Assembly: GCA_964562375.1 (NCBI GenBank)
Contig: CAZLSW010000001.1
Span: 32,871 to 96,870, forward strand
From: an uncultured Muribaculaceae bacterium
Lineage (GTDB): Bacteria > Bacteroidota > Bacteroidia > Bacteroidales > Muribaculaceae
Direction of reading: 5' to 3'
Length of the DNA: 64,000 nucleotides
Each line of letters begins with the position of its first letter. Within the stretch, counting starts at the first letter, position 1. A program made the translations under genes and the position numbers. Below are positions 5,061-62,324 of the stretch, in pieces. Below the pieces are notes generated by a model, which was not told where the DNA came from, made no database searches, and was given only the letters and a program-made list of their open reading frames with translations.

Positions 5061-5139
5061 GTAATAATAACGCTTTTAGGGGAATTTATATTTTATTTTT
5101 CTTACTGTCCCGCCGACACGATGTGACTTCCTTTCTGGA

Positions 5140-6601: not shown

Positions 6602-9373
6602 ATGGAATACAATCATAAAGATATTGAAAGCCGGTGGCAAAACCGGTGGAGAGAAGATTGCACCTACCAGGTGTCCATTGACAAAAATCGTCCCAAATTT
6701 TATGTGCTCGACATGTTTCCTTACCCCTCGGGAGCCGGATTGCATGTTGGTCATCCCCTGGGATATATAGCAAGCGATATCTACTCGCGTTACAAGCGCC
6801 TGCAAGGCTTCAACGTGCTTCATCCCATGGGATACGACGCTTATGGTCTTCCCGCCGAGCAATACGCCATCCAGACGGGTCAACATCCCGAGAAAACCAC
6901 CATTGATAATATCAACCGTTACCGCGAGCAGCTCGACAAGATAGGTTTCTGCTATGACTGGAGCCGCGAGATAAAGACTTGTGACCCTGAGTATTATAAA
7001 TGGACACAGTGGGCCTTCATCGAGATGTTTGGCCACTATTACGACACTGCCAAAAGCAAAGCTATGCCTATTGCCGACCTCATCGCTCATTTTGAAAAGA
7101 ATGGCACCGAGGGGTTGACAGCCGCCGGCAGCAAGGAACTGAGTTTCACTGCCGATGAGTGGAAGGCGATGAGCGAAAAACAGAAGAGCGACACGCTGAT
7201 GAACTGGCGCATCGCCTATCTGGGCAACACGATGGTCAACTGGTGTCCAAAATTAGGCACGGTATTGGCCAACGATGAGGTAAGCGAGGGAGTGTCAATC
7301 AGAGGTGGCTATCCAGTGGAGCAGAAACTGATGTACCAGTGGTGCTTGCGCGTGTCGGCTTACGCCCAAAGGCTGCTCGACGGACTGGAGAAAATCGACT
7401 GGACCGACTCGTTGAAGGAGACCCAGCGCAATTGGATTGGCCGTAGCGAGGGTGCCGAGATGCGTTTCAAAATCGACAATAGCGACGTGGAGATGGAGAT
7501 CTTCACCACCCGCGCCGACACCGTATTTGGTGTAACATTCATGGTACTGGCTCCCGAAAGCACCTACGTCGACTTGATAACAACTCCGGAGCAACGCAAG
7601 GCAGTAGATGATTATATAGCTTCAATCAAGCACAAAACCGAGCGCGAGCGCATGATTGAAAAGCGAGTGAGCGGAGTGTTCACCGGTGCTTATGCCATCA
7701 ATCCATTGACTGGAAAGAAAATACCCGTATGGGTAAGCGACTATGTGCTCGCCGGTTACGGTACGGGCGCCATTATGGCCGTACCCGCCCACGACTCCCG
7801 CGACTGGGCGTTCGCCAAGCATTTCGACCTGCCTATTATCCCATTGATCGAGGGTGCCGACGTGTCGGAGGGCTCTTTCGACGCCAAGGAGGGCAAGATG
7901 ATCAACTCCTCCAACGGTGATTTCTCCCTCAACGGCCTCGAGGTCAAGCAAGCTATCGCAGCAACCAAGAAATATATAGAGGAGAAGGGCATCGGCAAGG
8001 TAAAGGTCAACTACCGTCTGCGCGACGCCATCTTCAGCCGCCAGCGCTACTGGGGCGAGCCATTCCCGGTATATTATAAAGATGGAGTGCCTCACATGAT
8101 GTCGCTCGAGGATCTCCCTCTGCTCCTTCCCGAGGTAGACAAATATCTCCCCACCGAGACGGGCGAGCCGCCCCTGGGCCGCGCCAAAAACTGGAAAACC
8201 CGCGAAGGCTATCCCATCGAGTTGAACACCATGCCAGGATTCGCTGGATCGTCGGCCTACTATCTGCGCTACATGGACCCTCGCAACAACGACGCTTTGG
8301 TATCCCAGGAGGCTGATGAGTATTGGCGCAACGTCGACCTCTACATAGGCGGCACCGAGCACGCCACGGGTCACCTAATCTACAGCCGATTCTGGAACAA
8401 ATTCCTCTACGACTTGGGTAAAGTAGTTGAGGATGAGCCGTTTAAAAAACTCATAAACCAGGGCATGATTCAGGGACGAAGCAACTTCGTATACCGAATC
8501 AAGGACACCAACACCTTCGTGTCATGCGGGCTGAAAGACCAATACGACACCACCCCTATCCACGTCGACGTCAATATCGTGAGCAACGACGTCCTCGACT
8601 TGGAGCGTTTCAAGGGTTGGCGACCCGAATTTGCCACCGCCGAATTCATCCTTGAGGATGGCAAATACATATGCGGCTGGGCCGTGGAGAAGATGTCGAA
8701 ATCGATGTTCAACGTGGTCAACCCCGACGACATCGTGGAGCGTTACGGTGCCGACACCCTACGCCTCTACGAAATGTTCCTCGGCCCGTTGGAGCAAAGC
8801 AAGCCTTGGGACACCAACGGCATCGACGGCGTTAACCGCTTTATCAAGAAACTTTGGGCCCTCTTCTACAAGGGTGGCCAGTGGCTGGTAACCGACGACG
8901 AGCCGTCCAAGGAATCGTTGAAATCGCTCCACAAGTTGATCAAGAAAGTTACCCAGGACATCGAGACATTCAGCTACAACACCTCGATAGCTGCCTTCAT
9001 GATATGTGTCAACGAGTTGACGCAACAAAAGTGCCACTCACGCCAAGTGCTTGAGCCACTGTTGATTCTGTTGGCGCCATTCGCTCCCCACGTTACAGAG
9101 GAGTTGTGGCACGCTTTGGGCCACGATACCACCATCTGCGACGCCCAATGGCCCGTGCACGACGAGGAATACCTGAAAGAAAACGAGGTGAACCTTGGCG
9201 TGTCGTTCAACGGCAAGGCCCGCTTCACCATCACCGTTCCTGCCGACCTCGACGCCGACTCTATCCAAAAACTCGCTCTGGAGCACGAAAGCGCCCAGAA
9301 ATGGCTCGAGGGCAAGACCGTCCGCAAGGTGATTGTGGTACCCGGTAAGATAGTTAATGTGGTAGTAGGATAA
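6602..9373 (+). CDS. leuS: Leucine--tRNA ligase
   Basis: 923 aa with HVGHPLGY (HIGH) and [10 protein letters not shown] (KMSKS) motifs. Confidence 0.97.
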
Positions 9374-19208: not shown

Positions 19209-19465
19209 CGTAATCAAATGATTACAATGGTTATTCACAAGGCGAGGGCAGTTATTATGCCAGCCAGAAGCGCCAGGCGCGCCAAGCGGGATATCCACCG
19301 AATGTGGCGGTCGCGGCGAGCGAAGCTGTCTTTGATATCGGTTACAATCGGTAGCATAGTTGTGTAAGCAAAGAAAGGGTTAATAAACTAAGTGAACATC
19401 ATTTTCCTTTATAACAATCAACTATGCCTTTTTGGCTCGCCAAAACCGCAAAAAAAGCGTTAAAG

Positions 19466-19566
19466 CAGGAGGTCCCGCCGTGTCGGCGGGACAGTTAGAC
19501 AAGAAGTCCCGCCGTGTCGGTGGGACAATAATTCTCTCGGGCCGACACGGCCCGACATCCTACTTG
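19466..19566. repeat. REP-like palindrome cluster (3 copies) downstream of asnS
   Basis: GTCCCGCCGTGTCGGCGGGAC, GTCCCGCCGTGTCGGTGGGAC and the inverted GGGCCGACACGGCCCGAC, with AGGA(A/G)GT / ACAG flanks. Confidence 0.9.
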
Positions 19567-19568
19567 CT

Positions 19569-21088: not shown

Positions 21089-22627
21089 TTATTCGAAGGA
21101 GCCCATTTTGAGGAAGTTAACCTCTTCCTGGGTGAGGTAACGCCAGCGGCCGCGGGGGAGGTTTTTCTTGGTCAGGCCCGCGAAGTACACGCGGTCGAGC
21201 TTGGTCACGTGGTAACCCAGCGACTCGAAGATACGGCGAACGACGCGATTGCGGCCCGAGTGGATCTCGATGCCCGCCTGGTTGCGGTCGGTCTCGGTGG
21301 CGTAGGAGATGGCGTCGGCGTGGATGGGGCCGTCGTCAAGCTCGATGCCGTCGGCGATACGCTGCATATCCTCCTCGGCGATGTCCTTGTCACACCATAC
21401 GTGGTAGATTTTCTTCTTCACGTATTTGGGGTGGGTGAGCTTGGAGGCCAGGTCACCGTCGTTGGTCAACAGCAGCACGCCGGTGGTGTTGCGGTCCAAG
21501 CGACCCACGGGGTAGATACGCTCGTTGCATGCGCCCTTCACCAGGTCCATAACCGTGGTGCGGCCGTTGGGGTCGTCGCTCGTGGTGACGCAATCCTTCG
21601 GTTTGTTAAGCAGGATGTAGCATTTGCTCTCCAGAGCCACCACCTTCTCATCGTATTCAACGACATCCGAGTGGGAGATCTTGGTACCCAGCTCGGTAAC
21701 AACGTTGCCGTTGACCTTCACCAAGCCCTGCTGGATGAACTCGTCGGCCTCGCGGCGCGAGCAGATACCGGCGTTGGCCATGAACTTGTTCAGACGAATC
21801 TGCTCATTGGGATCGGGTATCGGCATTTCGTACTCGATACGCTTGGGGCGCGGAGTGAAGCTCTTGCCGCGTGAGGGCATGAACCCTTGCTGACCCTGCT
21901 GGCGACGGTTGTTGTACCCGCCTTGCTGACGGTTGTTGTAGCCGCCCTGGCGGTTATTGTAACCACCCTGGCGGTTGTTGTTGTAGCCACCCTGACGGTT
22001 GTTGTTGTAGCCACCCTGGCGGTTGTTGTTGTAGCCGCCCTGACGGTTGTATCCGCCCTGTTGGCGATTCTGGCCTTGGTGACCGGGGTTGTTGTAACCG
22101 CCTTGGCGATTGTTGTATCCGCCCTGGCGATTGTTGTTGTAACCGCCTTGGCGGTTGTTATTGTATCCACCCTGCTGGCGAGGCTGGTAGCCGCCGGCGT
22201 TGGGACGCGGCTGGTAGCCTGTGTTGGGGCGGGGCTGGTAGCCTTGGGTTGGGGTAGCGCCGGCTGCGCCCTCGGCGGTCTCGCCTTCCTTGGCCTCGCC
22301 CTGGGGGGCGGCGGAGGGGGTACCGTAGGTGTTGGGACGCGGCTGATAGCCACCACCTTGGTAGTTATTGTTATAGCGATTGTAGCCCCCCTGCTGGCGA
22401 TTTTGGTAGCCTCCAGCGTTGTTGTAGCGGTTTTGGTAACCACCCTGTTGGCGTGGCTGATAGGGGCGCGGCTGGTAGGGGCGGTCGCCCGTGGGGGCGG
22501 CGTCGCTGTTGTGATCGTTCATTGAGCTGTAGCTCGACTTTTCATAGCGTGAGCCTTCGTGATCGTCGGCCACCGCACGGCTCTCGCCGATTCTGGGTCG
22601 TTTCCCTTTTTTGTCGTTACTTTCCAT
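21089..22627 (-). CDS. Pseudouridine synthase (RluB/RsuA family) with a roughly 250-aa N-terminal Gly/Tyr/Asn/Gln/Arg repeat region
   Basis: C-terminal half has an S4 domain (IRLNKFMANAGICSRREADEFI) and the catalytic VGRLDRNTTGVLLLTNDG. The N-terminal half is NRQGGYNN-type repeats. Confidence 0.88.
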   Translation of the reverse strand: MESNDKKGKRPRIGESRAVADDHEGSRYEKSSYSSMNDHNSDAAPTGDRPYQPRPYQPRQQGGYQNRYNNAGGYQNRQQGGYNRYNNNYQGGGYQPRPNTYGTPSAAPQGEAKEGETAEGAAGATPTQGYQPRPNTGYQPRPNAGGYQPRQQGGYNNNRQGGYNNNRQGGYNNRQGGYNNPGHQGQNRQQGGYNRQGGYNNNRQGGYNNNRQGGYNNNRQGGYNNRQGGYNNRQQGGYNNRRQQGQQGFMPSRGKSFTPRPKRIEYEMPIPDPNEQIRLNKFMANAGICSRREADEFIQQGLVKVNGNVVTELGTKISHSDVVEYDEKVVALESKCYILLNKPKDCVTTSDDPNGRTTVMDLVKGACNERIYPVGRLDRNTTGVLLLTNDGDLASKLTHPKYVKKKIYHVWCDKDIAEEDMQRIADGIELDDGPIHADAISYATETDRNQAGIEIHSGRNRVVRRIFESLGYHVTKLDRVYFAGLTKKNLPRGRWRYLTQEEVNFLKMGSFE

Positions 22628-31675: not shown

Positions 31676-33542
31676 TTACGATGTGATAGTGGTAGGCGCC
31701 GGGCATGCCGGTTGCGAGGCGGCAATGGCGGCTTCGCGGCTCGGCGCGTCAACGCTGTTGATCACTATCGACATGAACAAAATCGCCCAGATGAGCTGCA
31801 ACCCAGCCGTCGGGGGCATCGCCAAAGGCCAGATCGTGCGGGAAATCGACGCCATGGGTGGCCATATGGGAATCATCACCGACCGATCGGCGATACAGTT
31901 CCGTATGCTCAACCGCTCGAAAGGTCCGGCAATGTGGAGTCCGCGTTCGCAGTGCGACCGTATGAAATTCTCACTCCTTTGGCGACACACGCTCGAAAAC
32001 GCCCCTAACTTGTACATGTGGCAGGACAACGTCACCTCGCTGCTCATCGAGGATGGCAAGCTCGCGGGAGTAAAAACCGCCCTCGGTGTTGAGTTTCGCT
32101 CAAAGGCAGTTGTGCTTACCGCCGGCACTTTCCTCAACGGATTGATGCACGTGGGGCGCGCCCAGGTGAAAGGTGGCCGCGTGGCCGAGCCAGCTTCGCA
32201 CGGCATCACCGAACAGTTGCGCGACCTGGGTTTCGCCACCGACCGAATGAAGACCGGCACGCCTGTGCGCATCGACGCACGCTCGGTCGACTGGTCGCTC
32301 ACTACCGAGCAACTCGGCGACAACGATTTCCATAAATTCTCCTACCTCCCCGAGGTGCGACGTGAGTTGCGACAACTCCCATGCGCTATCGTATACACCA
32401 ACGAGCGCACCCACGATGTGCTGCGCGCAGGATTGCCCGACTCTCCTCTTTACAACGGCCAAATCCAGAGCATCGGTCCGCGCTACTGTCCCAGTATCGA
32501 AACAAAGATCGTCACCTTCGCCGACAAAACCGAGCATCAGCTCTTCCTCGAGCCGGAAGGCGAGGATACCCAAGAATACTACCTCAACGGCTTCTCATCG
32601 TCGCTTCCCCTGAAAGTGCAGATTGAAGCCTTGCAGACAATCCCCGCGCTGCGCGACGTACACATTTACCGTCCGGGTTACGCCATCGAATACGACTTCT
32701 TCGACCCGACCCAACTCTACCACACACTCGAAACCAAACTCCTCCCGGGACTCTTTTTCGCCGGTCAGGTCAACGGTACCACGGGATACGAAGAAGCCGC
32801 GGGCCAAGGCCTGGTGGCAGGTGCCAACGCCGCTTTGAAGGTGCAGGGTAGGGGGGAGTTCACCCTCTCCCGCGACGAAAGCTACATTGGAGTGCTTATC
32901 GACGACCTCGTCACCAAGGGGGTCGACGAGCCTTACCGAATGTTCACCTCACGCGCTGAGTACCGCATACTCCTACGCCAGGACGACGCCGCCATGCGCC
33001 TCACCCCAAAAGCCTACGCCGTCGGTCTGGTTGACGAGCGTCGCTACCAACTTACCGAACGCAAGCGCGCCCTGCGCGACTCCCTAATAGAATTTGCTCG
33101 CCGCTACTCAATCAAGGCGGCGCTGATCAACCCCGCGCTTGAGCAACTTGGCACCGCGCCCCTCACCCAAGGCACGCGCCTCTACGATCTGCTCCTGCGT
33201 CCTCAGTTATCCATCCCCGCGCTTGTCCCCCTTATCGACGCCCTCCGCCGCCGCGTGGAGGAGATTCCCAATGACCTGCGCGACGAAGTGGTGGAGTGCG
33301 CCGAAATCCTCATCAAGTACCAAGGTTACATCGACCGCGAGGCTCAAATCGCCCAAAAGCTGCGACGCCTCGAGGAGGTGAAACTCGGCGACCGTTTCGA
33401 CTACTCCACCATCCACCAGCTCTCCACCGAGGCCCGACAAAAGCTCGCGAAAATCCAGCCCGCGACCGTCGGACAAGCCTCCCGAATCCCCGGCATTTCC
33501 CCCAGCGACATAAACATCCTTCTGTTGCTGTTGGGACGCTAA
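31665..33542 (+). CDS. mnmG: tRNA uridine 5-carboxymethylaminomethyl modification enzyme MnmG (GidA)
   Basis: MKFNYDVIVVGAGHAGCEAA FAD fold; 625 aa. The ATG at 31665 overlaps the ybeY end; the ORF is open from 31572. Confidence 0.96.
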   Translation: MKFNYDVIVVGAGHAGCEAAMAASRLGASTLLITIDMNKIAQMSCNPAVGGIAKGQIVREIDAMGGHMGIITDRSAIQFRMLNRSKGPAMWSPRSQCDRMKFSLLWRHTLENAPNLYMWQDNVTSLLIEDGKLAGVKTALGVEFRSKAVVLTAGTFLNGLMHVGRAQVKGGRVAEPASHGITEQLRDLGFATDRMKTGTPVRIDARSVDWSLTTEQLGDNDFHKFSYLPEVRRELRQLPCAIVYTNERTHDVLRAGLPDSPLYNGQIQSIGPRYCPSIETKIVTFADKTEHQLFLEPEGEDTQEYYLNGFSSSLPLKVQIEALQTIPALRDVHIYRPGYAIEYDFFDPTQLYHTLETKLLPGLFFAGQVNGTTGYEEAAGQGLVAGANAALKVQGRGEFTLSRDESYIGVLIDDLVTKGVDEPYRMFTSRAEYRILLRQDDAAMRLTPKAYAVGLVDERRYQLTERKRALRDSLIEFARRYSIKAALINPALEQLGTAPLTQGTRLYDLLLRPQLSIPALVPLIDALRRRVEEIPNDLRDEVVECAEILIKYQGYIDREAQIAQKLRRLEEVKLGDRFDYSTIHQLSTEARQKLAKIQPATVGQASRIPGISPSDINILLLLLGR

Positions 33543-33632
33543 ATAGGAAGTCCCGCCAGCACGGCAGGACAGTAAAACAGGTCTCCTACAATAGGAGAAT
33601 GGAAGCCGGCTCGACCCGGCCCCGACAATAAA
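33543..33632. repeat. REP-like variant (GTCCCGCCAGCACGGCAGGAC) plus a second-family element directly after the mnmG stop
   Basis: The TAA stop of mnmG is followed by ATAGGAAGTCCCGCC.... ATGGAAGCCGGCTCGACCCGGCCCCGACAA matches 23644-23673. Confidence 0.8.
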
Positions 33633-33650: not shown

Positions 33651-33706
33651 TTCATAACTCCAAGAAAATCAATTAACAAATATTTACCCCCCCTCTCCTC
33701 GACTGT

Positions 33707-33827
33707 CGTTTACTCGTTCATTCGTTTACTCGTTCATTCGTTAATTCGTATACTCGTGTACTCGTGTACTCGTTCACTCGAAAACCAAAAACCAAAAACC
33801 AAAAACTAGAAACTAGAAACTAGAAAC
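33707..33827 (+). repeat. Modular leader array upstream of apt: nine 8-mers (CGTTTACT/CGTTCATT/CGTGTACT), (AAAACCA)x3, (AACTAGA)x3
   Basis: Read directly. Same 8-mer-then-7-mer order as upstream of leuS and the acyl-CoA synthetase gene. Ends 16 nt before the apt ATG. Confidence 0.9.
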
Positions 33828-33842
33828 TTTAAAACTAAAATA

Positions 33843-34389: not shown

Positions 34390-34482
34390 TAGGCGGACCG
34401 TCGTTCGACGGTCATATAAATTTATCACGCGGATTCATATCGATAACAAATCGATTAAAATCCGCGTGATAAGTTTTTATAG

Positions 34483-34586
34483 CTGTCGGGCCGACACGGC
34501 CCGACCTCCTTCCTAAGCTAAGTAGGAGGTCCCGCCGTGTCGGCGGGACTGTTTTTCTGTCGGGCCGACACGGCCCGACTTCCTGT
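34483..34586. repeat. REP-like palindrome cluster (3 copies, alternating orientation)
   Basis: CTGTCGGGCCGACACGGCCCGACCTCCT, AGGAGGTCCCGCCGTGTCGGCGGGACTG and CTGTCGGGCCGACACGGCCCGACTTCCT. Confidence 0.92.
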
Positions 34587-34597
34587 CTAACCCTAGG

Positions 34598-40452: not shown

Positions 40453-40640
40453 TAAGTAGGACGTCAAGTAGGAAGTCGGGCCGTGTCGGCCCGACAGATC
40501 AGAAAGGAAGTCGGGCCGTGCCGCCCCGACAGATTAGAAAGGAAGTCGGGCCGTGTCGGCCCGACAAATTAGAAAGGAGGTCGGGCCGACACGGCCCGAC
40601 AACCAATTCCGTCCCGCCGACACGGCGGGACATCCTATTT
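40453..40640. repeat. REP-like palindrome cluster (5 copies, about 35-nt period)
   Basis: Three forward copies of AGGAAGTCGGGCCGTG(T/C)CGGCCCGACA spaced by ATCAGAA/ATTAGAA, then two inverted copies (…GCCGACACGGC…). Confidence 0.95.
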
Positions 40641-40727
40641 AGCGGGGGCCAATCTCCTATTTACCATTGTCATTTTTCCACAAAAATCATTTTATTTCAA
40701 GAAAAATGTAAAATTATTTTGGTAATT

Positions 40728-42247: not shown

Positions 42248-43330
42248 TTAACAACTCTTTGGCTCACCCCTATACTGGTAGTGGTTGCGTAGTGATTCGA
42301 AGGCTTGCGGCCGGGCTTTTAGCTCGGCCGTATCCTTTCGGGGGTCGTAGCTGGCCAAAAGCGCCTCCACGCTCACAGTATCGGCCACAGGTGGTAGTTT
42401 AGGCAGGAAGTCGGGCCGTGTCGGCCCGACAGAAAGAAAGTCCCGCCGTGTCGGCCCGACAGAAAGGAAGTCCCGCCGTGTCGGCCCGACAGAAAGGAAG
42501 TGCTCCCTCACGGCGGCGACGGCTATCAGGGTAGCCCGTTGCTTGCCTTCCAGGGAGTAACCGGCTATATGCGGCGTGGCGATCTCGGCAAGCGACAATA
42601 ACCCGGGACTGATGTTAGGCTCTCCCTCCCAGCAGTCAATCGCGGCGCCAGTAATTTGGCCGCTCCGCAACGCCTCAACCAGTGCAGGCGTATCGACCAC
42701 TGGGCCGCGAGCCGCATTGAAAATCAGCGGTTTTTGCTCGCACTTGCCGAAGAAATCGGCATCGGCCATATGGAATGTTCGATCCTCGCCTTCGCGGGTG
42801 AGAGGCGTGTGGAAAGTTATCACGTTGGCTTCGCGAGCGATCTCGTCGAGCGTCACGAAACCCTCAGCGCCCTCCTCGCGAGCTCTTGGCGGGTCGCAGA
42901 GTAGCACCTTGATTCCCAATCCCTTGGCCCATCTTTGGACAATCTTGCCCACATGGCCCACGCCAACTATTCCCAAAACTGTGCCCTCGAGTGGGCGCAT
43001 GGCCATCAGCGACGTGAGCACCCACTGGGCCACGCCCGGAGCGTTGCAGCCAGGGGCGTTCCTCACCTCAATTCCACGCGACGCGCAATAGGGGAGGTCG
43101 ATATGGTCGGTGCCGATAGTCGCGGTCGCAATCATCTGGCAACGAGAGTGTTCCAGCAAGTTGGCGTTGCATTTCGTGCGTGTGCGGGTAACCAGCGCAT
43201 CGACGTCGCGCATCGCCTCCGGCGTGATTTCCTCGGCGGGGAGATACCTCACCTGGCCAAGGTCCTCAAGCATTCCTTGGATGAACGGGATGTTGGCCTC
43301 GACCACGATGTTTAAGCCGTGAGATTCCAT
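42248..43330 (-). CDS. pdxB: D-isomer-specific 2-hydroxyacid dehydrogenase, erythronate-4-phosphate dehydrogenase (PdxB)-like, carrying three in-frame repeat insertions
   Basis: GIVGVGHVGK NAD fold and ATPHIAGYS. Start at MESHGLNIVV (ATG 43330). FLSVGPTRRD x3 is encoded by REP-like copies. Confidence 0.75.
   Translation of the reverse strand: MESHGLNIVVEANIPFIQGMLEDLGQVRYLPAEEITPEAMRDVDALVTRTRTKCNANLLEHSRCQMIATATIGTDHIDLPYCASRGIEVRNAPGCNAPGVAQWVLTSLMAMRPLEGTVLGIVGVGHVGKIVQRWAKGLGIKVLLCDPPRAREEGAEGFVTLDEIAREANVITFHTPLTREGEDRTFHMADADFFGKCEQKPLIFNAARGPVVDTPALVEALRSGQITGAAIDCWEGEPNISPGLLSLAEIATPHIAGYSLEGKQRATLIAVAAVREHFLSVGPTRRDFLSVGPTRRDFLSVGPTRPDFLPKLPPVADTVSVEALLASYDPRKDTAELKARPQAFESLRNHYQYRGEPKSC
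42401..42500. repeat. Three tandem REP-like copies (30-nt period) inside the pdxB-like CDS
   Basis: Cores at 42410-42430, 42440-42460 and 42470-42490. The 30-nt period equals 10 codons and reads through as (F)LSVGPTR(R/P)D. Confidence 0.95.
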
Positions 43331-46240: not shown

Positions 46241-46405
46241 CAAGTAGGAAGTCGGGCCGTGCCGGCCCGACAGATAGAAAGGACGTCGGGCCGTGTCGGC
46301 CCGACAGATCAGAAAGGAAGTCGGGCCGTGCCGGCCCGACAGAAAACGTGTCCCGCCGGCACGGCGGGACATCCTACTTATAAAAGGGGACATCCTACTT
46401 ATAAA
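46241..46405. repeat. REP-like palindrome cluster (4 copies) plus a duplicated flank (GGACATCCTACTTATAAAAG x2)
   Basis: Three forward GTCGGGCCGTG(C/T)CGGCCCGAC copies and one GTCCCGCCGGCACGGCGGGAC. Confidence 0.95.
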
Positions 46406-48150: not shown

Positions 48151-48174
48151 TCCTCACCTCGTTTCCTCGATAGT

Positions 48175-48252
48175 CGTGCACTCGTGTATTCGTGCATTCG
48201 TGCATTCGAAAAATCACCCCTCTTTCTGAAAACTGAAAACTGAAAACTGAAA
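48175..48252 (+). repeat. Modular leader array: 8-mers (CGTGCACT CGTGTATT CGTGCATT CGTGCATT) then (CTGAAAA)x4
   Basis: Read directly. Ends 11 nt before the ATG at 48263. Confidence 0.9.
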
Positions 48253-48262
48253 GCTCCCTTAT

Positions 48263-49927
48263 ATGCTCGAAAGATTCCTCGATAAAACCCAATTCTCCTC
48301 CTACGACGACTTCATGGAGAATTTCCATGTCAACGTCCCGGAAAATTTCAATTTCGGCTACGACGTGGTCGACGCCTGGGCCGCTGAAGACCCCACGCGC
48401 CCGGCCCTGTTGTGGACCAACGAGGCTGGCGAGGAGCGCCGATTCACCTTCGCCGACCTCAAGCGCGACTCCGACGCCACCGCATCGTTCTTTCAGGAGC
48501 TGGGCATAGGCCGCGGCGACCGCGTGATGCTCATTCTCAAGCGCCACTACCCATTCTGGTGGGCCATCACCGCCCTCCACAAGTTAGGTGCGGTCGTCAT
48601 CCCCGCCACCCACCTGTTGACCGAAAAAGATATCATCTACCGCTGCGAGCGAGCCGATATCAAGGCGATTGTGGCCTCCGGCGACCCCATCGTCACCGGC
48701 CATATCGACAAGGCCCTTCCACAATGCCCTTCGGTAAAGTACAGGATTTCAACCGGTCCGCTGGTCCCCGAGGGCTGGCTCGACTTCAACACTGGCGTGG
48801 AATTGGCCCCCGAGTTCAAGCGTCCCGAGCATCCCAACACCAACGACGACATCTCGCTGCTCTACTTCACCTCCGGCACCACCGGCGAGCCCAAAATGGT
48901 GGCCCACGATTTCACCTACCCCTTGGGCCACATAATCACAGCCTCCTACTGGCACAACCTCCATCCCGGATCGCTGCATCTCACCCTGGCCGACACCGGT
49001 TGGGGTAAGGCCGTATGGGGGAAACTTTATGGCCAATGGATCGCTGGCGCCGAGGTCTTTGTCTACGACTTCGAGAAATTCGAGCCAGTGGATGTCCTGG
49101 AGATGATCCACAAGTACAAAATCACCTCCTTCTGCGCCCCTCCCACGGTGTTCCGCTTCCTCATTCGCGAGGACCTCACGAAATACGACATATCATCCCT
49201 GAAATATTGCACCATCGCCGGCGAGGCCCTCAACCCCTCGGTCTACGAGCAGTGGCTTAAATTGACGGGAATCAAACTTATGGAGGGCTTTGGCCAGACC
49301 GAGACCACCCTCACCATCGCCACTTATCCCTGGCTCGAGCCAAAGCCCGGCTCCATGGGCAAGAAAGGACCGGAATACGACATCGACCTCCTCACCCCCG
49401 ACGGCCGCTGGGCCGAGGACGGCGAGCAGGGAGAAATCGTGGTTAAGCTCCCCAAGGACGGCCACAAGCCCCTGGGATTGTTCAAGGAGTACCTGCGCGA
49501 CCCGCAGCTCACCGCTGAGGCCATCAACAATGGCGTCTATCACACGGGCGACGTGGCTTGGAGAGACGAGGATGGGTACTACTGGTTCGTTGGGCGCACC
49601 GACGACGTTATCAAGTCGTCAGGCTATCGTATTGGCCCGTTCGAGGTCGAGTCGGCCCTCATGACCCATCCCGCCGTGGTGGAGTGCGCCATCACCGGCG
49701 TCCCCGACGACATCCGCGGCCAGGTGGTGAAAGCCACTATCGTCCTCGCCAAGGACTACGTGGAACGCGCCAAGACCGAGGGTGAAAAGCTCATCAAGGA
49801 GATACAGAACCACGTAAAGCGCGTCACGGCCCCCTATAAATATCCCCGAATCATCGAATTCGTCAAAGAGCTCCCCAAAACCATCAGCGGCAAAATACGC
49901 CGTGTGGAAATCCGCGACAAAAAATAG
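48263..49927 (+). CDS. AMP-binding acyl-CoA synthetase (medium-chain/acetyl-CoA-synthetase-like)
   Basis: YFTSGTTGEPKMV, GFGQTE, YHTGDVAWRDEDGYYWFVGRTDDVIK and a terminal SGKIRR. Confidence 0.9.
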   Translation: MLERFLDKTQFSSYDDFMENFHVNVPENFNFGYDVVDAWAAEDPTRPALLWTNEAGEERRFTFADLKRDSDATASFFQELGIGRGDRVMLILKRHYPFWWAITALHKLGAVVIPATHLLTEKDIIYRCERADIKAIVASGDPIVTGHIDKALPQCPSVKYRISTGPLVPEGWLDFNTGVELAPEFKRPEHPNTNDDISLLYFTSGTTGEPKMVAHDFTYPLGHIITASYWHNLHPGSLHLTLADTGWGKAVWGKLYGQWIAGAEVFVYDFEKFEPVDVLEMIHKYKITSFCAPPTVFRFLIREDLTKYDISSLKYCTIAGEALNPSVYEQWLKLTGIKLMEGFGQTETTLTIATYPWLEPKPGSMGKKGPEYDIDLLTPDGRWAEDGEQGEIVVKLPKDGHKPLGLFKEYLRDPQLTAEAINNGVYHTGDVAWRDEDGYYWFVGRTDDVIKSSGYRIGPFEVESALMTHPAVVECAITGVPDDIRGQVVKATIVLAKDYVERAKTEGEKLIKEIQNHVKRVTAPYKYPRIIEFVKELPKTISGKIRRVEIRDKK

Positions 49928-49934
49928 CAGTACG

Positions 49935-50035
49935 ATCAAGCCACCGTGCCCCGCGGTCAGAAAGGAAGCCGGGCCGTGTCGGCCCGGCAGTATAAACAAG
50001 CCACCGTGCCCCGCGGTTTGCCGCGGTGGTCTTCC
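49935..50035. repeat. Nested composite: CCGCGG-type element interrupted by a REP-like copy, then a complete CCGCGG-type element
   Basis: CAAGCCACCGTGCCCCGCGG | TCAGAAAGGAAGCCGGGCCGTGTCGGCCCGGCAGTATAAA | CAAGCCACCGTGCCCCGCGGTTTGCCGCGGTGGTC. Confidence 0.85.
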
Positions 50036-50083
50036 CCCCAGTTCGATTTCCCTCGATTTCCCCCGATTTCAGTCGAAAAAATT

Positions 50084-51199
50084 ATGAAATATTCCCGCCT
50101 AGCCGTCAAAATCGGCTCCAACGTCCTCTCCCGCCCCGACGGCACCCTCGACATCACCCGAATGAGCGCCCTGGTCGACCAAGTGGCCGAGCTGCGTCGC
50201 ATGGGTCTCGACATCGTCATGATCTCATCGGGAGCAGTCGCCGCCGGCCGCTCCGAGCTCAGAAAGGATGTCGGGCCGTGTCGGCCCGACAGAGACACGC
50301 CAAAACCCCTCGACTCCGTCTCCCAGCGACAGCTCTTCTCAGCCGTCGGCCAAGCCAAATTAATCAACCGCTACTACGAGCTCTTCCGCGACCACGGCCT
50401 ATCCTGCGGCCAGGTCCTCACCACCAAAGAAAACTTCTCCACCCGCCGCCATTACCTCAACCAAAAGCACTGCATGGAGGTAATGCTCGCCGCTGGCGTC
50501 ATTCCTATCGTCAACGAAAACGACACCGTGTCGCTCACCGAACTGATGTTCACCGACAACGACGAGCTCTCGGGCCTGATCGCCGCCATGATGGGCATGG
50601 ACGTTTTGGTGATCCTAAGCAATATAGATGGTGTATACGACGGCGATCCCGCCGACCCGGAGTCGCGTCTTATCACCGACGTGGCTCCGGTTGACGACCC
50701 CACGCGCTACGTGCAAGCGGCCAAATCCTCGCTCGGCCGCGGGGGGATGGGCACCAAGATGCGCATCGCCCGCAAGGTGGCCTCCGAGGGCCTCGATGTG
50801 ATTATCGCCAACGGCAAACGCCCCAACATCCTCATCGACCTTATCTCGCGTGACGACACCCCCTGCACCGTCTTCCACGCCGCTGCCGTCGAGCCCTCGA
50901 GCGTTAAGAAATGGATTGCCCACAGCGAGGGATTCGCCAAGGGTGAGGTGCATGTCAACCAAGGCGCTGCCGACGCGCTCCTCTCAGGCACCGGCGCCAG
51001 CCTTTTGGCTGTAGGAGTTACCCGCATTGTGGGCGATTGGGAAAAGGACGACGTCGTGAAAGTAATCGCCCCCGATGGCCGCCAGATCGCCCTCGGCCGA
51101 GTCAGCTACTCCTCGTCCACTACTGCCAAGGTAATGGGCCGCACAGGCCAGCGCCCAGTAATCCACAGCGATTACCTCTACCTCGAAGGCTGCCCTTAA
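50084..51199 (+). CDS. proB: Glutamate 5-kinase (with PUA domain), carrying one in-frame repeat insertion
   Basis: VKIGSNVL, SSGAVAAG, AVGQAKL and a C-terminal PUA domain. Start at MKYSRLAV (ATG 50084). Confidence 0.92.
   Translation: MKYSRLAVKIGSNVLSRPDGTLDITRMSALVDQVAELRRMGLDIVMISSGAVAAGRSELRKDVGPCRPDRDTPKPLDSVSQRQLFSAVGQAKLINRYYELFRDHGLSCGQVLTTKENFSTRRHYLNQKHCMEVMLAAGVIPIVNENDTVSLTELMFTDNDELSGLIAAMMGMDVLVILSNIDGVYDGDPADPESRLITDVAPVDDPTRYVQAAKSSLGRGGMGTKMRIARKVASEGLDVIIANGKRPNILIDLISRDDTPCTVFHAAAVEPSSVKKWIAHSEGFAKGEVHVNQGAADALLSGTGASLLAVGVTRIVGDWEKDDVVKVIAPDGRQIALGRVSYSSSTTAKVMGRTGQRPVIHSDYLYLEGCP
50261..50295. repeat. REP-like copy inside the proB CDS
   Basis: AGAAAGGATGTCGGGCCGTGTCGGCCCGACAGAG, read through as RKDVGPCRPDR between SSGAVAAGRSEL and the AVGQ region. 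Confidence 0.95.
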
Positions 51200-51227: not shown

Positions 51228-52412
51228 TTATAGCTTTAAGGCTTTAAGGCTGAGGCGATCCACCAGCGTCGCCAGCGCGCAATCCCCCGTGACGTTACAC
51301 GCCGTCCCGAAATTATCCATCGCGATATACAACGCGATCATCAACGCATTCATCTCCTCGGTAAAGCCAAGGATTGACGACAAGATGCCCAATGAAGCCA
51401 TAATCGCGCCGCCTGGGATACCCGGCGCGGCCACAATCGCTATACCCAGCATCGCGGCCAGTTGCAGGAACATCCCCGCGTCGTAGGGCACGCCCTGGTA
51501 AATCATCAACGCCAGCGCGCACGCCACGATTTTCAGTGCCGAGCCGCTCATGTGGATTGTCGCGCATAGGGGGATAACAAAACCCGCCACGCTCTCGTTG
51601 ACACCCGTCTTGATTGTCTGCTTCAGCGTCACTGGTATCGTGGCGGCTGAGCTCTGCGTGCCCAGCGCGGTCATATACGCCGGAAGCATCGTGCGCAGCA
51701 TCTTCAGCGGATTCCGCTTGGCGGCCGCTCCCGCGATGCTGTATTGCAGCAACAAGATGCCGATATGAAGCACGAAAATCACCGCGATCACCTTCACGAA
51801 CGTCTGCAGGATCGCTCCCACCTGCCCCTCCATGGTCATCGTAAGGAAGATTCCGAAGATGTACACCGGCAGCAACGGGATTATCACGCCGCGGATGGTC
51901 AAGTCGATGATGTCGCGAAATTGTCGGGCCGCTTTGCTCAGACCGTCAGCGTGGGTGTAAGCTATGCCGATGCCCACGGTGAACGACAGCACAAGCGCGG
52001 TCATCACCCCCATCGGCGCCGGTATCTCCACCGTGAACCACGGCTTAGAAAGGATGTCGGGCCGTGTCGGTCCGACAGTATAGGCCCCCTCAGGTGAAAT
52101 GATATCCGGGAAAATCGCCGCGCCGGTAAAATATGAAATCGCGCCCGCGAGGAACGTCGCCGAATAGGCAAGCACCACGGTTGTTAGCAGCATCTTGCCG
52201 GCACCGCGCCCGATGTCGCCGATTGCCGGCGTGACAAAGCCGATGATAATCAGCGGAATAAGGAACCCCAGGAACTGGCCGAAAATACCGTTGAATGTGG
52301 CGCACAGAGCCGCCAACCACCCCGGCGCCACCATTCCCGCGCCTATTCCCAGCGCGATAGCTATTATAATGCGGGGAAGCAACCCCATCTTGGTTAACGC
52401 TTTGAAACTCAT
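51228..52412 (-). CDS. Sodium:dicarboxylate/amino-acid symporter family transporter (SstT-like), carrying one in-frame repeat insertion
   Basis: Polytopic protein with PLCATIHMSGSAL and AAPGIPGGAIMA motifs. Start at MSFKALTK (ATG 52412); the longer ORF to 52493 only translates repeat DNA. Confidence 0.85.
   Translation of the reverse strand: MSFKALTKMGLLPRIIIAIALGIGAGMVAPGWLAALCATFNGIFGQFLGFLIPLIIIGFVTPAIGDIGRGAGKMLLTTVVLAYSATFLAGAISYFTGAAIFPDIISPEGAYTVGPTRPDILSKPWFTVEIPAPMGVMTALVLSFTVGIGIAYTHADGLSKAARQFRDIIDLTIRGVIIPLLPVYIFGIFLTMTMEGQVGAILQTFVKVIAVIFVLHIGILLLQYSIAGAAAKRNPLKMLRTMLPAYMTALGTQSSAATIPVTLKQTIKTGVNESVAGFVIPLCATIHMSGSALKIVACALALMIYQGVPYDAGMFLQLAAMLGIAIVAAPGIPGGAIMASLGILSSILGFTEEMNALMIALYIAMDNFGTACNVTGDCALATLVDRLSLKALKL
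52047..52080. repeat. REP-like copy inside the transporter CDS
   Basis: AGAAAGGATGTCGGGCCGTGTCGGTCCGACAGTA, read through on the minus strand as TVGPTRPDILS. Confidence 0.95.
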
Positions 52413-52450: not shown

Positions 52451-52562
52451 CTAAGTAAGTAGGAAGTCCCGCCGTGCCGGCGGGACAGCTCAAGTAGGAA
52501 GTCCCGCCGTGCCGGCGGGACAGTTTTCTCTGGCGGGCCGTGCCGGCCCGCCTTCCTTTCTA
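52451..52562. repeat. REP-like palindrome cluster (3 copies) upstream of the transporter
   Basis: Two AAGTAGGAAGTCCCGCCGTGCCGGCGGGACAG copies and one GGCGGGCCGTGCCGGCCCGCC variant. Confidence 0.92.
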
Positions 52563-52796: not shown

Positions 52797-53300
52797 ATGG
52801 GCTCCTCTAAATTCCAATCCAATCTCATGAAGCTGCAAAGCAATATGCTCAACTTCGCTTATATGCTTACCGCCAACCGCGACGACGCTTACGACCTCCT
52901 CCAGGACACCACCCTCAAAGCTCTCGACAACGAAGAGAAGTACATCGACAACACCAACTTCAAAGGCTGGGTGTTCACCATCATGCGCAACATCTTCATC
53001 AACAATTACCGCCGCGTGGCCCGCGCAGCCACTGTTGTCGACTCCACCGAAAACCTCTACCACCTGAATCTCTCCCAGGATTCAGGCTTGGAAACTCCCG
53101 AAGGCGCCTTTGGCGCCAAGGAGATCACTCAATACCTGAGCGAGTTTCCCGACGAATATCGCGTTCCTTTCTCGATGCACGTCGCCGGCTACAAGTACAA
53201 CGAGATCGCCGAGAAGATGAACCTCCCCCTTGGCACCGTCAAGAGCCGCATCTTCTTCGCCCGCCAGCGCCTCCAGAAGCGTTTCGCCGATTACCGCTAA
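52797..53300 (+). CDS. RNA polymerase sigma-70 factor, ECF subfamily
   Basis: Region 2 (DLLQDTTLKAL...GWVFTIMRNIFINNYRR) and region 4 (YNEIAEKMNLPLGTVKSRIFFARQRL). No adjacent anti-sigma gene. Confidence 0.9.
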   Translation: MGSSKFQSNLMKLQSNMLNFAYMLTANRDDAYDLLQDTTLKALDNEEKYIDNTNFKGWVFTIMRNIFINNYRRVARAATVVDSTENLYHLNLSQDSGLETPEGAFGAKEITQYLSEFPDEYRVPFSMHVAGYKYNEIAEKMNLPLGTVKSRIFFARQRLQKRFADYR

Positions 53301-53445
53301 GTAGGAGGTCCCGCCGTGCCGGCGCCCCAGCTTAAGTAGGAAGTCCCGCCGTGCCGGCGCCCCAGCTTAAGTAGGAAGCTGGGCCGTGTCGGCCCAGCAG
53401 TATCAACAAGCCACTGTGCCCCGCGGTTTGCCGCGGTGGTCTCCT
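53298..53445. repeat. REP-like cluster (3 copies) plus a CCGCGG-type element, starting on the sigma-factor stop codon
   Basis: TAAGTAGGAGGTCCCGCCGTGCCGGCGCCCCAGC x2, then AGGAAGCTGGGCCGTGTCGGCCCAGCAG and CAAGCCACTGTGCCCCGCGGTTTGCCGCGGTGGTC. Confidence 0.92.
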
Positions 53446-53553: not shown

Positions 53554-54975
53554 CTACTGCTCTTCCTCGGCGGCTGCCAGGGCTGCTTCCTCTTCCTTGG
53601 TGAGCCACTTCACGCGCACGTGGGTCTCAGGGTAGCGGAGAACCATGCAAGAGGCCTCGGTGATGACGATCGCGTCGGTGTTGCGCTGGCCCGAGGTGCG
53701 CAGGTCCAGTTTCTCCGTCTGGAAGGGAATGTGGCAGTACTTGGTCACATACTCAGGGTCGAGAATCAATCCGTCGCGCTCGTGGCCGCACTGGTCGAAC
53801 GTCTCGCAAGGCAACACGTAGAGGGAGCCGAATTTGCTCACGATCTCGTTGAAGTCGATGCCCCACTTGGTCACGCGTTCCTGGGAATTCACCAGGCGAT
53901 TGAACGTTAGGCAGTTGATCTCCTCCACAAGTTTCGACCCCGCAATCAAGATCTTGCGCGTCGATCCGTTGTTCTTGGTGAACGCCTTGTAGCACAGCGC
54001 CACCAGGTCCTTCTCTTTGAAGGTCGACGGCATATTGTGGTCGCGGCCGGCCTGGTTCCAGATTCCGCCGGTGAGGTAAATCTCCCCCTTGGTGGGGTCG
54101 TTGACCTTGGCCTTGGTGCCGAACAGGAAGTTCTTCTCCATGCCCAGGCGCATGTCGTAGATGGCTACCTCCTCCTGGTCGCTGAGGGTCCAGCCTACCT
54201 CTTTGTTGGCCAGTTTCATAAGCGTCGACTGCTCGATCTGGGCCTTGAAGATTTGGCAGTAGTTGTCGGCCTTGGTGGGTACCGCCTCGAAGGAGGTCGT
54301 CTGCACGTCAAGCTCGCCGGCAGCGCGGCCCATGCGGATGAGTTTGGTCCCCTTGTCCATTGCGGGAACCACGGCCACGCCTGAGGTGTCGAAGTTGTTT
54401 ACCGAGATCACGTTGACCGTCTTGGTTTGAGTGCGCGAAACCACATAGAGCACGAGGGGCTGTTGGCTCGAGGCCGTAATGGAGGGCACGAGAATCGTCT
54501 CCGAGGCCTCAAACATGTTCTCCTTGGCTACCGTCAGGGTGAGAGGAGAGTTGGTCGAGCTCCCTTCGGTGGACTTCGCTAGCTCGGTTTCAGTCTCCTT
54601 GGTGTCCACCGAGTAGTACTGCACAGTCATTGAGTCGGCGGCGCGGCTGCCGGTGCAGCGAGTAATCTGGTCAACCGGGGTGGCCATGGGACGGATCTTG
54701 GTGATGCGGTTGTCGATCTCGCTACGCAAGAGGCCCGGGGCTACCTCCTCGGTGACCGAGGTGGTGAGGGGGCCGTCGGTGACGTGGGTCCCTCCCGCGG
54801 TACCCGCTACAACAGCCGCCGAAGCGTAGATCATGTCTCCGTCGCCGCCCAAGGCGAGCCAAAGGGCCACTGTGGCAATCGCCACGAGAAGGGTTACTAC
54901 GCCGTTGTCGCTTTTCACCCACTGGATCATCTGGTCAATCATGCCAGAAAGATTCTTCACATTGAAATTTTTCAT
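53554..54975 (-). CDS. HK97-fold major-capsid-like protein (SU10/DUF5309-type resemblance)
   Basis: 473 aa. ...EIDNRITKIRPMATPVDQI... resembles the N-terminal isP.dTPf signature. Also LSDQEEVAIYDMRLGMEKNFLFG and a C-terminal NTDAIVITEASCMVLRYPE. Recognition is by eye only. Confidence 0.55.
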   Translation of the reverse strand: MKNFNVKNLSGMIDQMIQWVKSDNGVVTLLVAIATVALWLALGGDGDMIYASAAVVAGTAGGTHVTDGPLTTSVTEEVAPGLLRSEIDNRITKIRPMATPVDQITRCTGSRAADSMTVQYYSVDTKETETELAKSTEGSSTNSPLTLTVAKENMFEASETILVPSITASSQQPLVLYVVSRTQTKTVNVISVNNFDTSGVAVVPAMDKGTKLIRMGRAAGELDVQTTSFEAVPTKADNYCQIFKAQIEQSTLMKLANKEVGWTLSDQEEVAIYDMRLGMEKNFLFGTKAKVNDPTKGEIYLTGGIWNQAGRDHNMPSTFKEKDLVALCYKAFTKNNGSTRKILIAGSKLVEEINCLTFNRLVNSQERVTKWGIDFNEIVSKFGSLYVLPCETFDQCGHERDGLILDPEYVTKYCHIPFQTEKLDLRTSGQRNTDAIVITEASCMVLRYPETHVRVKWLTKEEEAALAAAEEEQ

Positions 54976-56428: not shown

Positions 56429-57307
56429 ATGGCATTGAAACGCAACGCATTAGGGCGAGGCCTTGACTCGCTAATACCAATGGACGACGTGCCCGCCGCC
56501 GGCACGACGGCTATAAACACCGTGCCACTAAGCCAAATCTCGCCCAATCCCGATCAACCTCGCCAGACATTCGCCCAGGATGCTCTGGACGACTTGACGC
56601 GCTCGATCACAACGTATGGCGTGCTTCAGCCCATTTCCCTGAGGCAAGTTGGCCCCTCAAGCTACCAGATAATCGCTGGTGAGCGTCGCTATCGTGCCGC
56701 TTTGGCCGCAGGTCTGCGCGAGATCCCCGCATATATACGCGACGCCAACGAGCAAGAGCTCACCGAGATGGCTCTAATCGAGAACATCCAGCGCGAGGAT
56801 CTCAACCCCATCGAAATCGCCCTTACCTACAACAAGCTCATCGACCAATATCACCTCACCCAGGAGCAGCTTTCGGAACGCATCGGCAAAAGTCGAGCTG
56901 TGATCGCCAACGCGTTGCGCATGCTTCGCCTGCACGCTGATGTGCAATTGGCCCTGAGCGAGAGGCGATTGACCGAGGGACATGCCCGCGCTATTCTAAG
57001 GTTGGACGACCACCAGATGCAGAATAAACTGTTCCATCGTATCCTGGCCGAGGACCTGAGCGTGCGCCGCGCCGAAGAGCTTGCCAAAGAGATGCTCGAG
57101 GGGGTGGAAATAACCCCCAAGAAACCCACGCTAAAACGCGAAAAAAACCGCCTTTTCGACGAATTGAAGCAAAACCTCTCCGCCCGCTTTTCCGCTCCCG
57201 TCCAGCTCCATTGCGACGCCAACGGAAAAGGCCGCATTACCTTCTCCTTCCGCGACCAAGAGCAGCTCACCCGCCTGATCGCCCTCTTCGACCAAATCCA
57301 AGGCTAA
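56429..57307 (+). CDS. parB: Chromosome partitioning protein ParB (Spo0J)
   Basis: GERRYRAA box and an HTH region; 292 aa. Starts 2 nt after parA. Confidence 0.95.
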   Translation: MALKRNALGRGLDSLIPMDDVPAAGTTAINTVPLSQISPNPDQPRQTFAQDALDDLTRSITTYGVLQPISLRQVGPSSYQIIAGERRYRAALAAGLREIPAYIRDANEQELTEMALIENIQREDLNPIEIALTYNKLIDQYHLTQEQLSERIGKSRAVIANALRMLRLHADVQLALSERRLTEGHARAILRLDDHQMQNKLFHRILAEDLSVRRAEELAKEMLEGVEITPKKPTLKREKNRLFDELKQNLSARFSAPVQLHCDANGKGRITFSFRDQEQLTRLIALFDQIQG

Positions 57308-57358
57308 GTAGGAAGTCCCGCCGTTAAGTAGGAAGTCCCGCCGTGCCGGCGGGACAGC
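57305..57358. repeat. REP-like copies (one truncated, one full) starting on the parB stop codon
   Basis: TAAGTAGGAAGTCCCGCCGT | TAAGTAGGAAGTCCCGCCGTGCCGGCGGGACAG. Confidence 0.92.
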
Positions 57359-57370
57359 TCCTCCCCTCGG

Positions 57371-57500
57371 GCTCGACTTCCCTCGATTTAAGTCGATTTA
57401 AATCGATTTAAGTCGAAAGAAATCGAGAGAAATCGAGAGAAATCGAAAGAAATCGAGAGAAGTCGAAAGAAATCGAAAAAAATCGATATAAATCCGCGTG
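57371..57500. repeat. Thirteen-unit 10-nt tandem array (AAATCGAGAG / AAATCGAAAG / AAGTCGATTT types)
   Basis: Strict 10-nt period with a phased A-tract and TCGA in each unit, between convergent parB and the beta-helix lipoprotein gene. Confidence 0.92.
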
Positions 57501-62069: not shown

Positions 62070-62196
62070 AAGTTTATAGTTTCTTGTTTATAGTTTCTAG
62101 TTTCTAGTTTCTAGTTTCGCTAAATTGAATATTCACCGCTTTTCACCCCTTGAGCTATTAACTAGAAACTAGAAACTAGAAACTAGAAACTATAAA
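62070..62196. repeat. Inverted heptamer arrays (TAGTTTC)n ... (AACTAGA)n in a divergent promoter region
   Basis: The left array 62091-62118 (TAGTTTC x4) is the reverse complement of the right array 62160-62190. A 41-nt spacer separates them. Confidence 0.9.
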
Positions 62197-62324
62197 CCCC
62201 AAAACTTGGCCGCATCGCGAAAAACGCGTATCTTTGGGCCGTGAAAGGGCTAAGGCCGCATGATTGTGTTGAATATAACTCAATTCTACCCTTAAATATA
62301 CCAACATTAAACACGATAACCCGC

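Follow-up and report, generated by a model that had tools for sequence, protein, structure and literature searches.

The window, as we call the whole 64-kb stretch of DNA analyzed here, comes from a Muribaculaceae-like member of the Bacteroidales and contains an intact gene for glutamate 5-kinase (proB). The start of the predicted protein agrees with that of its relatives (MKYSRLAVKIG). A profile search against TIGR01027 gave 308.9 bits, well above the curated cutoff of 186, Escherichia coli glutamate 5-kinase (PDB 2J5T) was matched with an E-value of 3.8e-58, and every family-invariant column is retained. The product is a full-length ProB, comprising the AA-kinase and PUA domains. Inside this reading frame lies a short palindromic unit:

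50084..51199, plus strand: proB (glutamate 5-kinase), 371 aa, intact, ATG at 50084 and stop codon at 51197-51199
50261..50293, plus strand (the forward orientation of the element): REP-like unit in proB, 33 nt or 11 codons, in frame
50269..50291, plus strand: core of the hairpin in the proB unit, whose 10-bp stem is free of mismatches and encloses a 3-nt loop

The sequence at 50261-50294 is AGAAAGGATGTCGGGCCGTGTCGGCCCGACAGAG, and the 11 codons at 50261-50293 encode RKDVGPCRPDR, flanked by SSGAVAAGRSEL and DTPKPLDSVSQRQLFSAVGQAKL. The preliminary description of this DNA had recognized a REP-like element inserted in frame in proB, with this translation (the string it quoted, AGGATGTCGGGCCGTGTCGGCCCGACAGAG, is located at 50265-50294), and both statements hold: the open reading frame is intact, the peptide is the one read in the proB frame, and the palindrome belongs to a family with 30 copies in the window. 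The hairpin, with arms UGUCGGGCCG/CGGCCCGACA, has a predicted folding energy of -20 kcal/mol (z = -3.2), equaled in none of 200 shuffles; it is stable, as had been claimed, and its 10-bp stem slightly exceeds the 9 bp initially counted. The host gene had also been called essential. It is indeed intact and conserved, and essentiality applies conditionally, because proB is required for proline prototrophy and is not strictly essential.

The family to which the proB unit belongs is present at a density of about one copy per 2 kb of the window. Its 15-nt core, GGGCCGTGTCGGCCC, occurs 19 times at up to two mismatches in the 64-kb window, against 0.34 occurrences expected, and a scan with two 28-nt stem variants identified 30 units, compared to none in each of 20 shuffles. 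The 28-nt consensus can be written as AGGAAGTC-GGG/CCC-CCGTGTCGG-CCC/GGG-GACAG. A hidden Markov model (HMM) built from the units recovers them with E-values of 1e-4 to 1e-11; the proB copy is detected by nhmmer at 3.2e-10 and differs from the consensus at a single position. Most units (25 of 30) are intergenic, either as singletons or in arrays of two to five direct and inverted copies with a 34/35-nt period. The intergenic units discussed here are the following:

5103..5137, minus strand: solitary degenerate unit
19463..19567, no single strand: cluster of three units oriented +, +, -
33540..33574, plus strand: solitary degenerate unit
34480..34590, no single strand: cluster of three units oriented -, +, -
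40466..40641, no single strand: array of four direct units at a 35-nt period and one inverted unit
46242..46380, no single strand: array of three direct units and one inverted unit
49959..49992, plus strand: unit in the spacer, 156 nt long and filled with repeats, that separates proB from the acyl-CoA-synthetase-like gene
52457..52562, no single strand: array of two direct units and one inverted unit
53298..53402, plus strand: array of three units whose first TAA terminates the ECF sigma factor gene
57325..57359, plus strand: unit following a 20-nt half unit (57305-57324), adjacent to the stop codon of parB

Convergent, divergent, and tandem spacers are all populated, and the orientation of the units relative to gene ends is inconsistent. 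The TAA at the 5' end of the units serves as the stop codon at two sites, 53298-53300 (ECF sigma factor gene) and 57305-57307 (parB).

The stems of these units appear to be maintained as stems. Across the 30 copies, 93.9% of the stem cells are paired, and four of the nine stem pairs vary on both sides (GG/CC in some units and CC/GG in others), with a covariation score that was reached in none of 500 shuffles. The label REP-like fits because the family is abundant, mostly intergenic, and palindromic and has compensatory stem variants. The units are short imperfect palindromes of 30-35 nt with a 9-10-bp stem and a 3-nt loop, and within this one 64-kb window they occur at high copy, mainly outside genes, as singletons, clusters, and inverted dimers. 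Other classes of elements were considered and rejected. An intrinsic terminator was rejected in view of both the lack of a sense-strand U-run after the proB hairpin (the sense strand continues with AGAGACACG) and the lack of an orientation bias of the units relative to gene ends. MITEs are 70-300 bp long, with terminal inverted repeats of 15-30 bp and target-site duplications, in contrast to the single 30-35-nt hairpin seen here; no clear target-site duplication was seen, with the unit ends sharing just AGA/CAGA. Nor do the units form a CRISPR-like array, as they directly adjoin one another, with no spacers in between. The Rfam search yielded no match at positions 49900-50400 at E-values up to 1, and one tRNA and no other match in the whole window at the gathering threshold.

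Among the known systems, the E. coli REP/BIME sequences and the Pseudomonas REPIN-RAYT system consist of imperfect palindromes of about 35 nt that form direct and inverted arrays and show extreme lineage specificity. The window family resembles them in unit length, in the direct and inverted arrays, and in lineage specificity; the difference is that classical REPs are extragenic by definition and this family is partly intragenic. A closer parallel is provided by the GTAG- and CGTC-tagged REPs surveyed by Di Nocera, De Gregorio and Rocco in 2013 (PMC3733652). In that survey, REP families consist of short palindromes that fall into sub-families distinguished by alternative, complementary stem residues, occur in clusters and as inverted dimers, and can supply stop codons from the ends of their units; the window family agrees with this anatomy. 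The GTAG/CGTC REPs share with the window family a palindrome of 20-40 nt, high copy number, a mostly intergenic location as single units, clusters, and inverted dimers, and the stop-codon ends. Intragenic GTAG/CGTC-tagged units were reported, for example, in Opitutus terrae, Thauera, and Stenotrophomonas; the minority of REPs located wholly inside open reading frames of known proteins encode 10-30 or more amino acids, which were proposed to form flexible loops or linkers (PMC3733652).

In the GTAG-1/2 families, the tetranucleotide and two to three unpaired bases precede the stem (PMC3733652). In the window, GTAG is found in 12 of the 30 units (AAGTAGGA-stem), and the others read AGAAAGGA, AGGCAGGA, and similar; CGTC is present in just one of the 30. 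GTAG is missing from the AGAAAGGA subtype, to which all intragenic units belong (proB, the sdf transporter gene, and pdxB, see below). In the frame used in proB, the GTAG subtype would bring in a TAG stop codon, and the AGAAAGGA subtype is open. The window family thus differs from the GTAG REPs in its phylum, in carrying GTAG in only 12 of 30 units and never in an intragenic one, and in that a Pfam scan of 28 window ORFs detected neither a RAYT nor any other transposase. The host genes differ as well, being biosynthetic and transport genes in the window versus DNA-repair genes for the intragenic GTAG/CGTC REPs. In the 2013 survey, GTAG repeats were recorded in Proteobacteria, Cyanobacteria, Chloroflexi, and PVC bacteria, and Bacteroidetes were represented by CGTC repeats only (PMC3733652).

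The behavior of the intragenic units is also reminiscent of the Rickettsia palindromic elements (RPEs; Ogata et al. 2000), which, in the passages of PMC10969869 and PMC3733652 that deal with them, are portrayed as selfish palindromes inserted in frame in unrelated housekeeping genes without inactivating them. As with the window units, the RPE insertions can be accommodated by the protein fold. The RPEs are CGTC-tagged, and RPE-1 has a length of about 100-150 bp and encodes 30-50 amino acids, compared to 30-35 nt for the window unit, to which it shows no sequence similarity. The elements are confined to Rickettsia, an obligate intracellular alpha-proteobacterium, as opposed to a gut Bacteroidales bacterium. 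Despite the similar behavior, membership in the RPEs was therefore rejected on the basis of unit length (30-35 nt), the Bacteroidales host, and CGTC being present in 1 of 30 units.

To place the insert in the context of the ProB family, we measured the linker from the SGAVxxGR motif to RQLxSAVGQ in 119 sequences, namely, the window protein and the best 118 ProB hits. The lengths are distributed as follows:

14 aa: 90 of 119 sequences
15 aa: 11 of 119 sequences
16 aa: 7 of 119 sequences
17 aa: 9 of 119 sequences
19 aa: P0001 only
25 aa: the window protein only

The natural range in relatives is thus 14-17 aa, with P0001 at 19. Removal of the 11 REP codons leaves SEL-DTPKP-LD, that is, exactly the majority length of 14 aa, and the alignment to 2J5T gives exactly 11 extra residues, in line with the excess of about 11-12 over E. 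coli ProB that had been estimated. The closest relatives, P0001 (locus L001) and P0002 (locus L005), are 91% and 89% identical to the window ProB at the amino acid level, share the same gene order, and have intermediate linkers of 19 and 17 aa, respectively. Most orthologs accordingly lack the insert. The preliminary description had reasoned that the same peptide in relatives devoid of the palindrome would speak against an inserted element; P0001 comes partway to this, having RQEVG at the site, with a 5' half-element and no palindrome. At the nucleotide level, the L001 site reads TAGGCAGGAGGTGGGGTCGT-CGC, a 17/20 match to the REP 5' half that includes the shared AGG.AGGAGGTGGGG.CGT, and the 3' arm and the hairpin are missing; L005 retains AAGGAG at most. 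RQEVG looks like a decayed or truncated copy of the element rather than a native peptide.

Divergence at four-fold-degenerate sites is 39-42% between the three genomes (K of about 0.55-0.62), which amounts to a near trichotomy. ProB, the acyl-CoA-synthetase-like protein, and the transporter encoded next to proB nonetheless show 89-98% protein identity among the window and its sisters, and for the window and L001 proB, 91% amino acid identity stands against a 40% difference at four-fold sites. Given the high protein identity relative to the four-fold-site divergence, proB is under purifying selection. A dead gene copy, which had been raised as an objection to the inserted element, is not what the window shows: proB is intact and conserved, with its invariant residues in place. 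We regard as extremely improbable the explanation that combines this possibility with misassembly of a repeat into proB. The assembly is apparently unannotated, with proteins that have no accessions, and such repeats do break short-read assemblies; indeed, Logan contig L014 ends in repeats. However, the reading frame is uninterrupted, the sequence to either side of the unit aligns collinearly with the orthologs, all invariant residues are present along with the strong signature of purifying selection, and a 34-nt unit is shorter than a sequencing read, so that no chimeric joins arise within 1.1 kb of unique sequence. Furthermore, L014 (SRR10165005, 1.8 kb, covering the neighboring gene) is an independent contig that is identical to the window base for base up to position 49988 and ends inside the unit at 49959-49992. 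Collinear flanks and this agreement across the neighboring REP make an artifact unlikely.

For the structural context, an AlphaFold2 model of the window ProB was built from 69 homologs (mean pLDDT of 81.7). The Foldseek search with this model retrieved 2J5T (E-value of 7.6e-34), and the isolated kinase domain 2W21 superimposed with a TM-score of 0.89. Mapped on the model, as the preliminary description had suggested, the insertion falls in a low-confidence coil: residues 60-75, between helices 51-63 and 78-103, with a block pLDDT of 57-66. In the alignment with Drosophila P5CS (7F5T), residues 111-141 pair with the REP-bearing linker. This segment of P5CS is the "region I/hook", 17 residues of which are absent from E. 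coli glutamate 5-kinase (PMC8963878). The same loop of the amino-acid-kinase fold thus carries the eukaryotic hook and the REP peptide, which makes the site a naturally permissive insertion point of the fold, tolerating insertions of 11-17 residues. The two inserts are not homologous: the hook is a conserved helix-loop-helix that makes filament contacts (PMC8963878), in contrast to the REP peptide, which is predicted to form a coil.

Two additional genes carry in-frame units, so that three such genes are located within 10 kb:

42248..43330, minus strand: pdxB (erythronate-4-phosphate dehydrogenase; PDB 3OET, E-value of 2.8e-67; Pfam 2-Hacid_dh_C and DUF3410)
42401..42494, plus strand: REP array in pdxB, three tandem units with a 30-nt period, in frame
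51228..52412, minus strand: SDF-family (SstT-like) amino-acid transporter gene (PF00375 in homologs; NF010151, E-value of 5e-22)
52047..52080, plus strand: REP unit in the SDF transporter gene, read on the minus strand as YTVGPTRPDILSK

In the transporter, the unit, which has one stem mismatch and a folding energy of -14.5 kcal/mol, provides 13 codons in place of 12 native ones; the length of this loop is constant in every ortholog down to 63% identity, so the loop has been replaced, not lengthened. The pdxB array, translated on the minus strand as LSVGPTRRDF-LSVGPTRRDF-LSVGPTRPDF, makes up the linker before the C-terminal DUF3410 domain. At this position, the sisters have unrelated linkers of 22-25 aa, and those of the nearest outgroups are about 20 aa shorter. 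Units 2 and 3 of the array are GGG/CCC hybrids with two stem mismatches and weakened stems. No other REP array in the window has a period that is a multiple of three. The palindrome is translated in one relative frame (VGPxRPD) in each of the three genes, although with three events this coincidence is not significant (P of about 0.11).

The pattern in the transporter bears on how REP sequence enters genes. A simple insertion model leaves the replacement of the transporter loop unexplained, and one could envisage that proB, too, originally had a slightly longer native linker, similar to the 17-19-aa variants, that was overwritten from a REP copy by microhomology-seeded, short-patch gene conversion or template switching, without any transposition-type insertion. 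The exact exchange of 12 native for 13 REP codons with loop length retained, the pdxB array taking up most of a 22-25-aa linker, the 15-19-aa ProB linkers of relatives, and the motif that L001 shares with the REP 5' half would all agree with such a scenario. For proB itself, however, exact removal of 33 nt restores the majority linker of 14 aa, donor and recipient tracts cannot be defined, and the REP HMM makes no call on the L001 remnant. Overwriting thus appears to be an unlikely origin of the proB segment.

The distribution of the family among the sister genomes is strikingly uneven. The syntenic region contains 17 units in the window compared to a single degenerate one in the available sequence of L001 (19.5 kb) and none in that of L005 (13.3 kb), and no intergenic unit site is shared with either sister. 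The L001 unit, TAGAAAAGAAGTCGCGCCGTCCCGGCGGGACGG, is located at 8205-8235, right after a stop codon, where the window has no unit. An nhmmer search of L001 and L005 with the REP HMM detected this one intergenic copy and did not call the proB remnant. These counts indicate that the family exists in the clade but was expanded or retained only in the window lineage, and the L001 unit shows that the family predates the species split, with greatly different abundance in its descendants. Because L001 holds a 5' half-element at the same codon, the comparison of these sequences suggests that the proB insertion is also older than the split from the L001 lineage (K4 of about 0.55). If so, about six substitutions would be expected in the 28 nt, compared to the one that is observed (Poisson P of about 0.01). 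Such preservation of an old copy hints that it was homogenized with other units, that the palindrome is under selection, or that a hot spot received a younger unit by re-insertion.

Beyond the sister genomes, the exact core GTCGGGCCGTGYCGGCCCGAC was sought in 185,579 GTDB species representatives, yielding no family and only eight single, evidently chance matches in unrelated high-GC taxa. The scan of JGI metagenomes for both stem variants produced zero matches, and the protein search with the six-frame translation of tandem REP units, aimed at further ORFs decorated with or derived from REPs, found nothing at E-values up to 10. Likewise, the literature collection searched contained no paper linking Muribaculaceae with REPs. 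With exact cores absent from GTDB and JGI, no link in the literature, and only CGTC repeats reported for Bacteroidetes in the 2013 survey, the repeat family itself appears to be undescribed and highly lineage specific.

An alternative explanation is that the palindrome of the proB copy is a selected cis-regulatory RNA or DNA element, acting as a translational pause site, an RNase-processing or mRNA-stability determinant, an antisense terminator, or a protein-binding site, with the peptide as a by-product. The stem of this copy is a perfect 10 bp, the copy has changed less than neutral decay predicts if the insertion has the age suggested by the L001 remnant, and on the antisense strand the hairpin is followed by a weak TCCTTTCT tail that was flagged as terminator-like. 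The same unit, however, occurs 30 times, in every type of context and in three unrelated genes with inconsistent orientation, the sister species manage without a hairpin in proB, the other two intragenic sites have weakened stems, and there is no Rfam match. The presence of the unit in every genomic context and the hairpin-free sisters, in particular, make a regulatory role in proB very unlikely.

In our assessment, the proB segment is very probably a unit of a lineage-specific, REP-type selfish repeat that persists as a nearly neutral, frame-preserving passenger in a permissive loop and not as a regulatory device. This reading is supported by the in-frame loop or linker units in two further genes, by the contrast with the sister genomes, and by reports from other phyla of intragenic REPs occupying loops and linkers in functional proteins (PMC3733652, PMC10969869). 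According to this scenario, a REP-type selfish family would have colonized a Muribaculaceae-related genome, and one unit would have entered proB in frame, in a surface loop of variable length that connects helices two and three of the amino-acid-kinase domain. The Gly/Pro/Arg/Asp-rich peptide is predicted to be disordered there and to lie at a distance from the conserved catalytic motifs. Survival of the unit in proB could then be explained by its length being a multiple of three, by the subtype being stop-free in this frame, and by the peptide fitting as a disordered loop; with the insert accommodated in this manner, the enzyme is predicted to be functional and the insertion to be a nearly neutral passenger. 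The copy number and distribution of the units point to their mobility, and movement presumably would proceed via a REP-associated tyrosine transposase or through replication or recombination at the hairpins. The replacement in the transporter hints at an additional route, which might be short-patch conversion or insertion followed by a compensating deletion.

A broader possibility, which we put forward tentatively and hold to be rather doubtful, is that the REP family is a recurrent source of loops and linkers, whereby units enter or overwrite variable loops in a preferred frame (VGPxRPD), expand only in codon phase, and decay into ordinary-looking loops, as exemplified by the half-element in the ProB of the sister species; an insert at the hook site of ProB might even alter the assembly of the kinase. 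Codon-phased expansion is suggested by the 30-nt period in pdxB versus 34/35 nt outside genes. Unless such loop remodeling proves general, the understanding of proline biosynthesis and of REP biology is unchanged. The phenomenon itself is already established, so far chiefly for Rickettsia and for a small number of Proteobacteria and PVC bacteria, and the window supplies a tidy new example, from a gut Bacteroidales (Muribaculaceae-like) bacterium, of selfish palindromes inside functional housekeeping genes. It also represents a natural experiment on how a loop tolerates and acquires sequence, given that a sister species keeps a half-decayed copy at the same codon. On the practical side, such repeats fragment short-read assemblies and can make gene callers and reviewers suspect a pseudogene.

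Several other features of the window merit mention. In both sisters (L001 and L005), there is a 4-nt overlap (ATGA) between proB and the acyl-CoA-synthetase-like gene; in the window, 156 nt of repeats separate the two genes. The segment 49925-50083 combines a REP unit with two copies of CAAGCCACCGTGCCCCGCGGT and with (TCGATTTCCC)n, and the insert is flanked by CGACAAAAAAT and CGAAAAAATT, a possible target duplication. A second palindromic family, CAAGCCACYGTGCCCCGCGGTTTGCCGCGGTGGTCT (a CCGCGG hairpin), adjoins REP units at 49930-50035 and 53402-53442. Many intergenic spacers contain microsatellites with 7-10-nt repeats, including (AAACTAG)n, (CAACTAA)n, (TCGTTTAC)n, (TCGAAAGAAA)n, and (GCTAAAC)n, for example, at 6566, 13123, 21013, 25452, 26788, 33706-33840, 48174-48252, 57383-57494, 61454, and 62071-62197. 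(AAACTAG)n is found at no fewer than six loci, in both orientations, and this wealth of microsatellites is unusual for a bacterial genome. Among coding repeats, a 24-nt tandem repeat with about 11 copies (21906-22254) lies inside a 512-aa ORF at 21089-22627 on the minus strand.

The interval from the gene for the ECF sigma factor to parA/parB contains a gene (53554-54975 in the window, minus strand; 13445-14866 in L001) that encodes an SU10 major-capsid-protein domain (PF17236, E-value of 4.6e-51). Its chromosomal synteny is conserved in the P0001 species (contigs L001 and L002), and it is possibly a domesticated capsid (or encapsulin-like) gene or what is left of an old prophage. Finally, the window includes a vsr gene, for a very-short-patch repair endonuclease (4566-5060, minus strand), and its presence implies that the genome also encodes a Dcm-type methyltransferase. 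CCGG and GGCC sites are found in the REP core.
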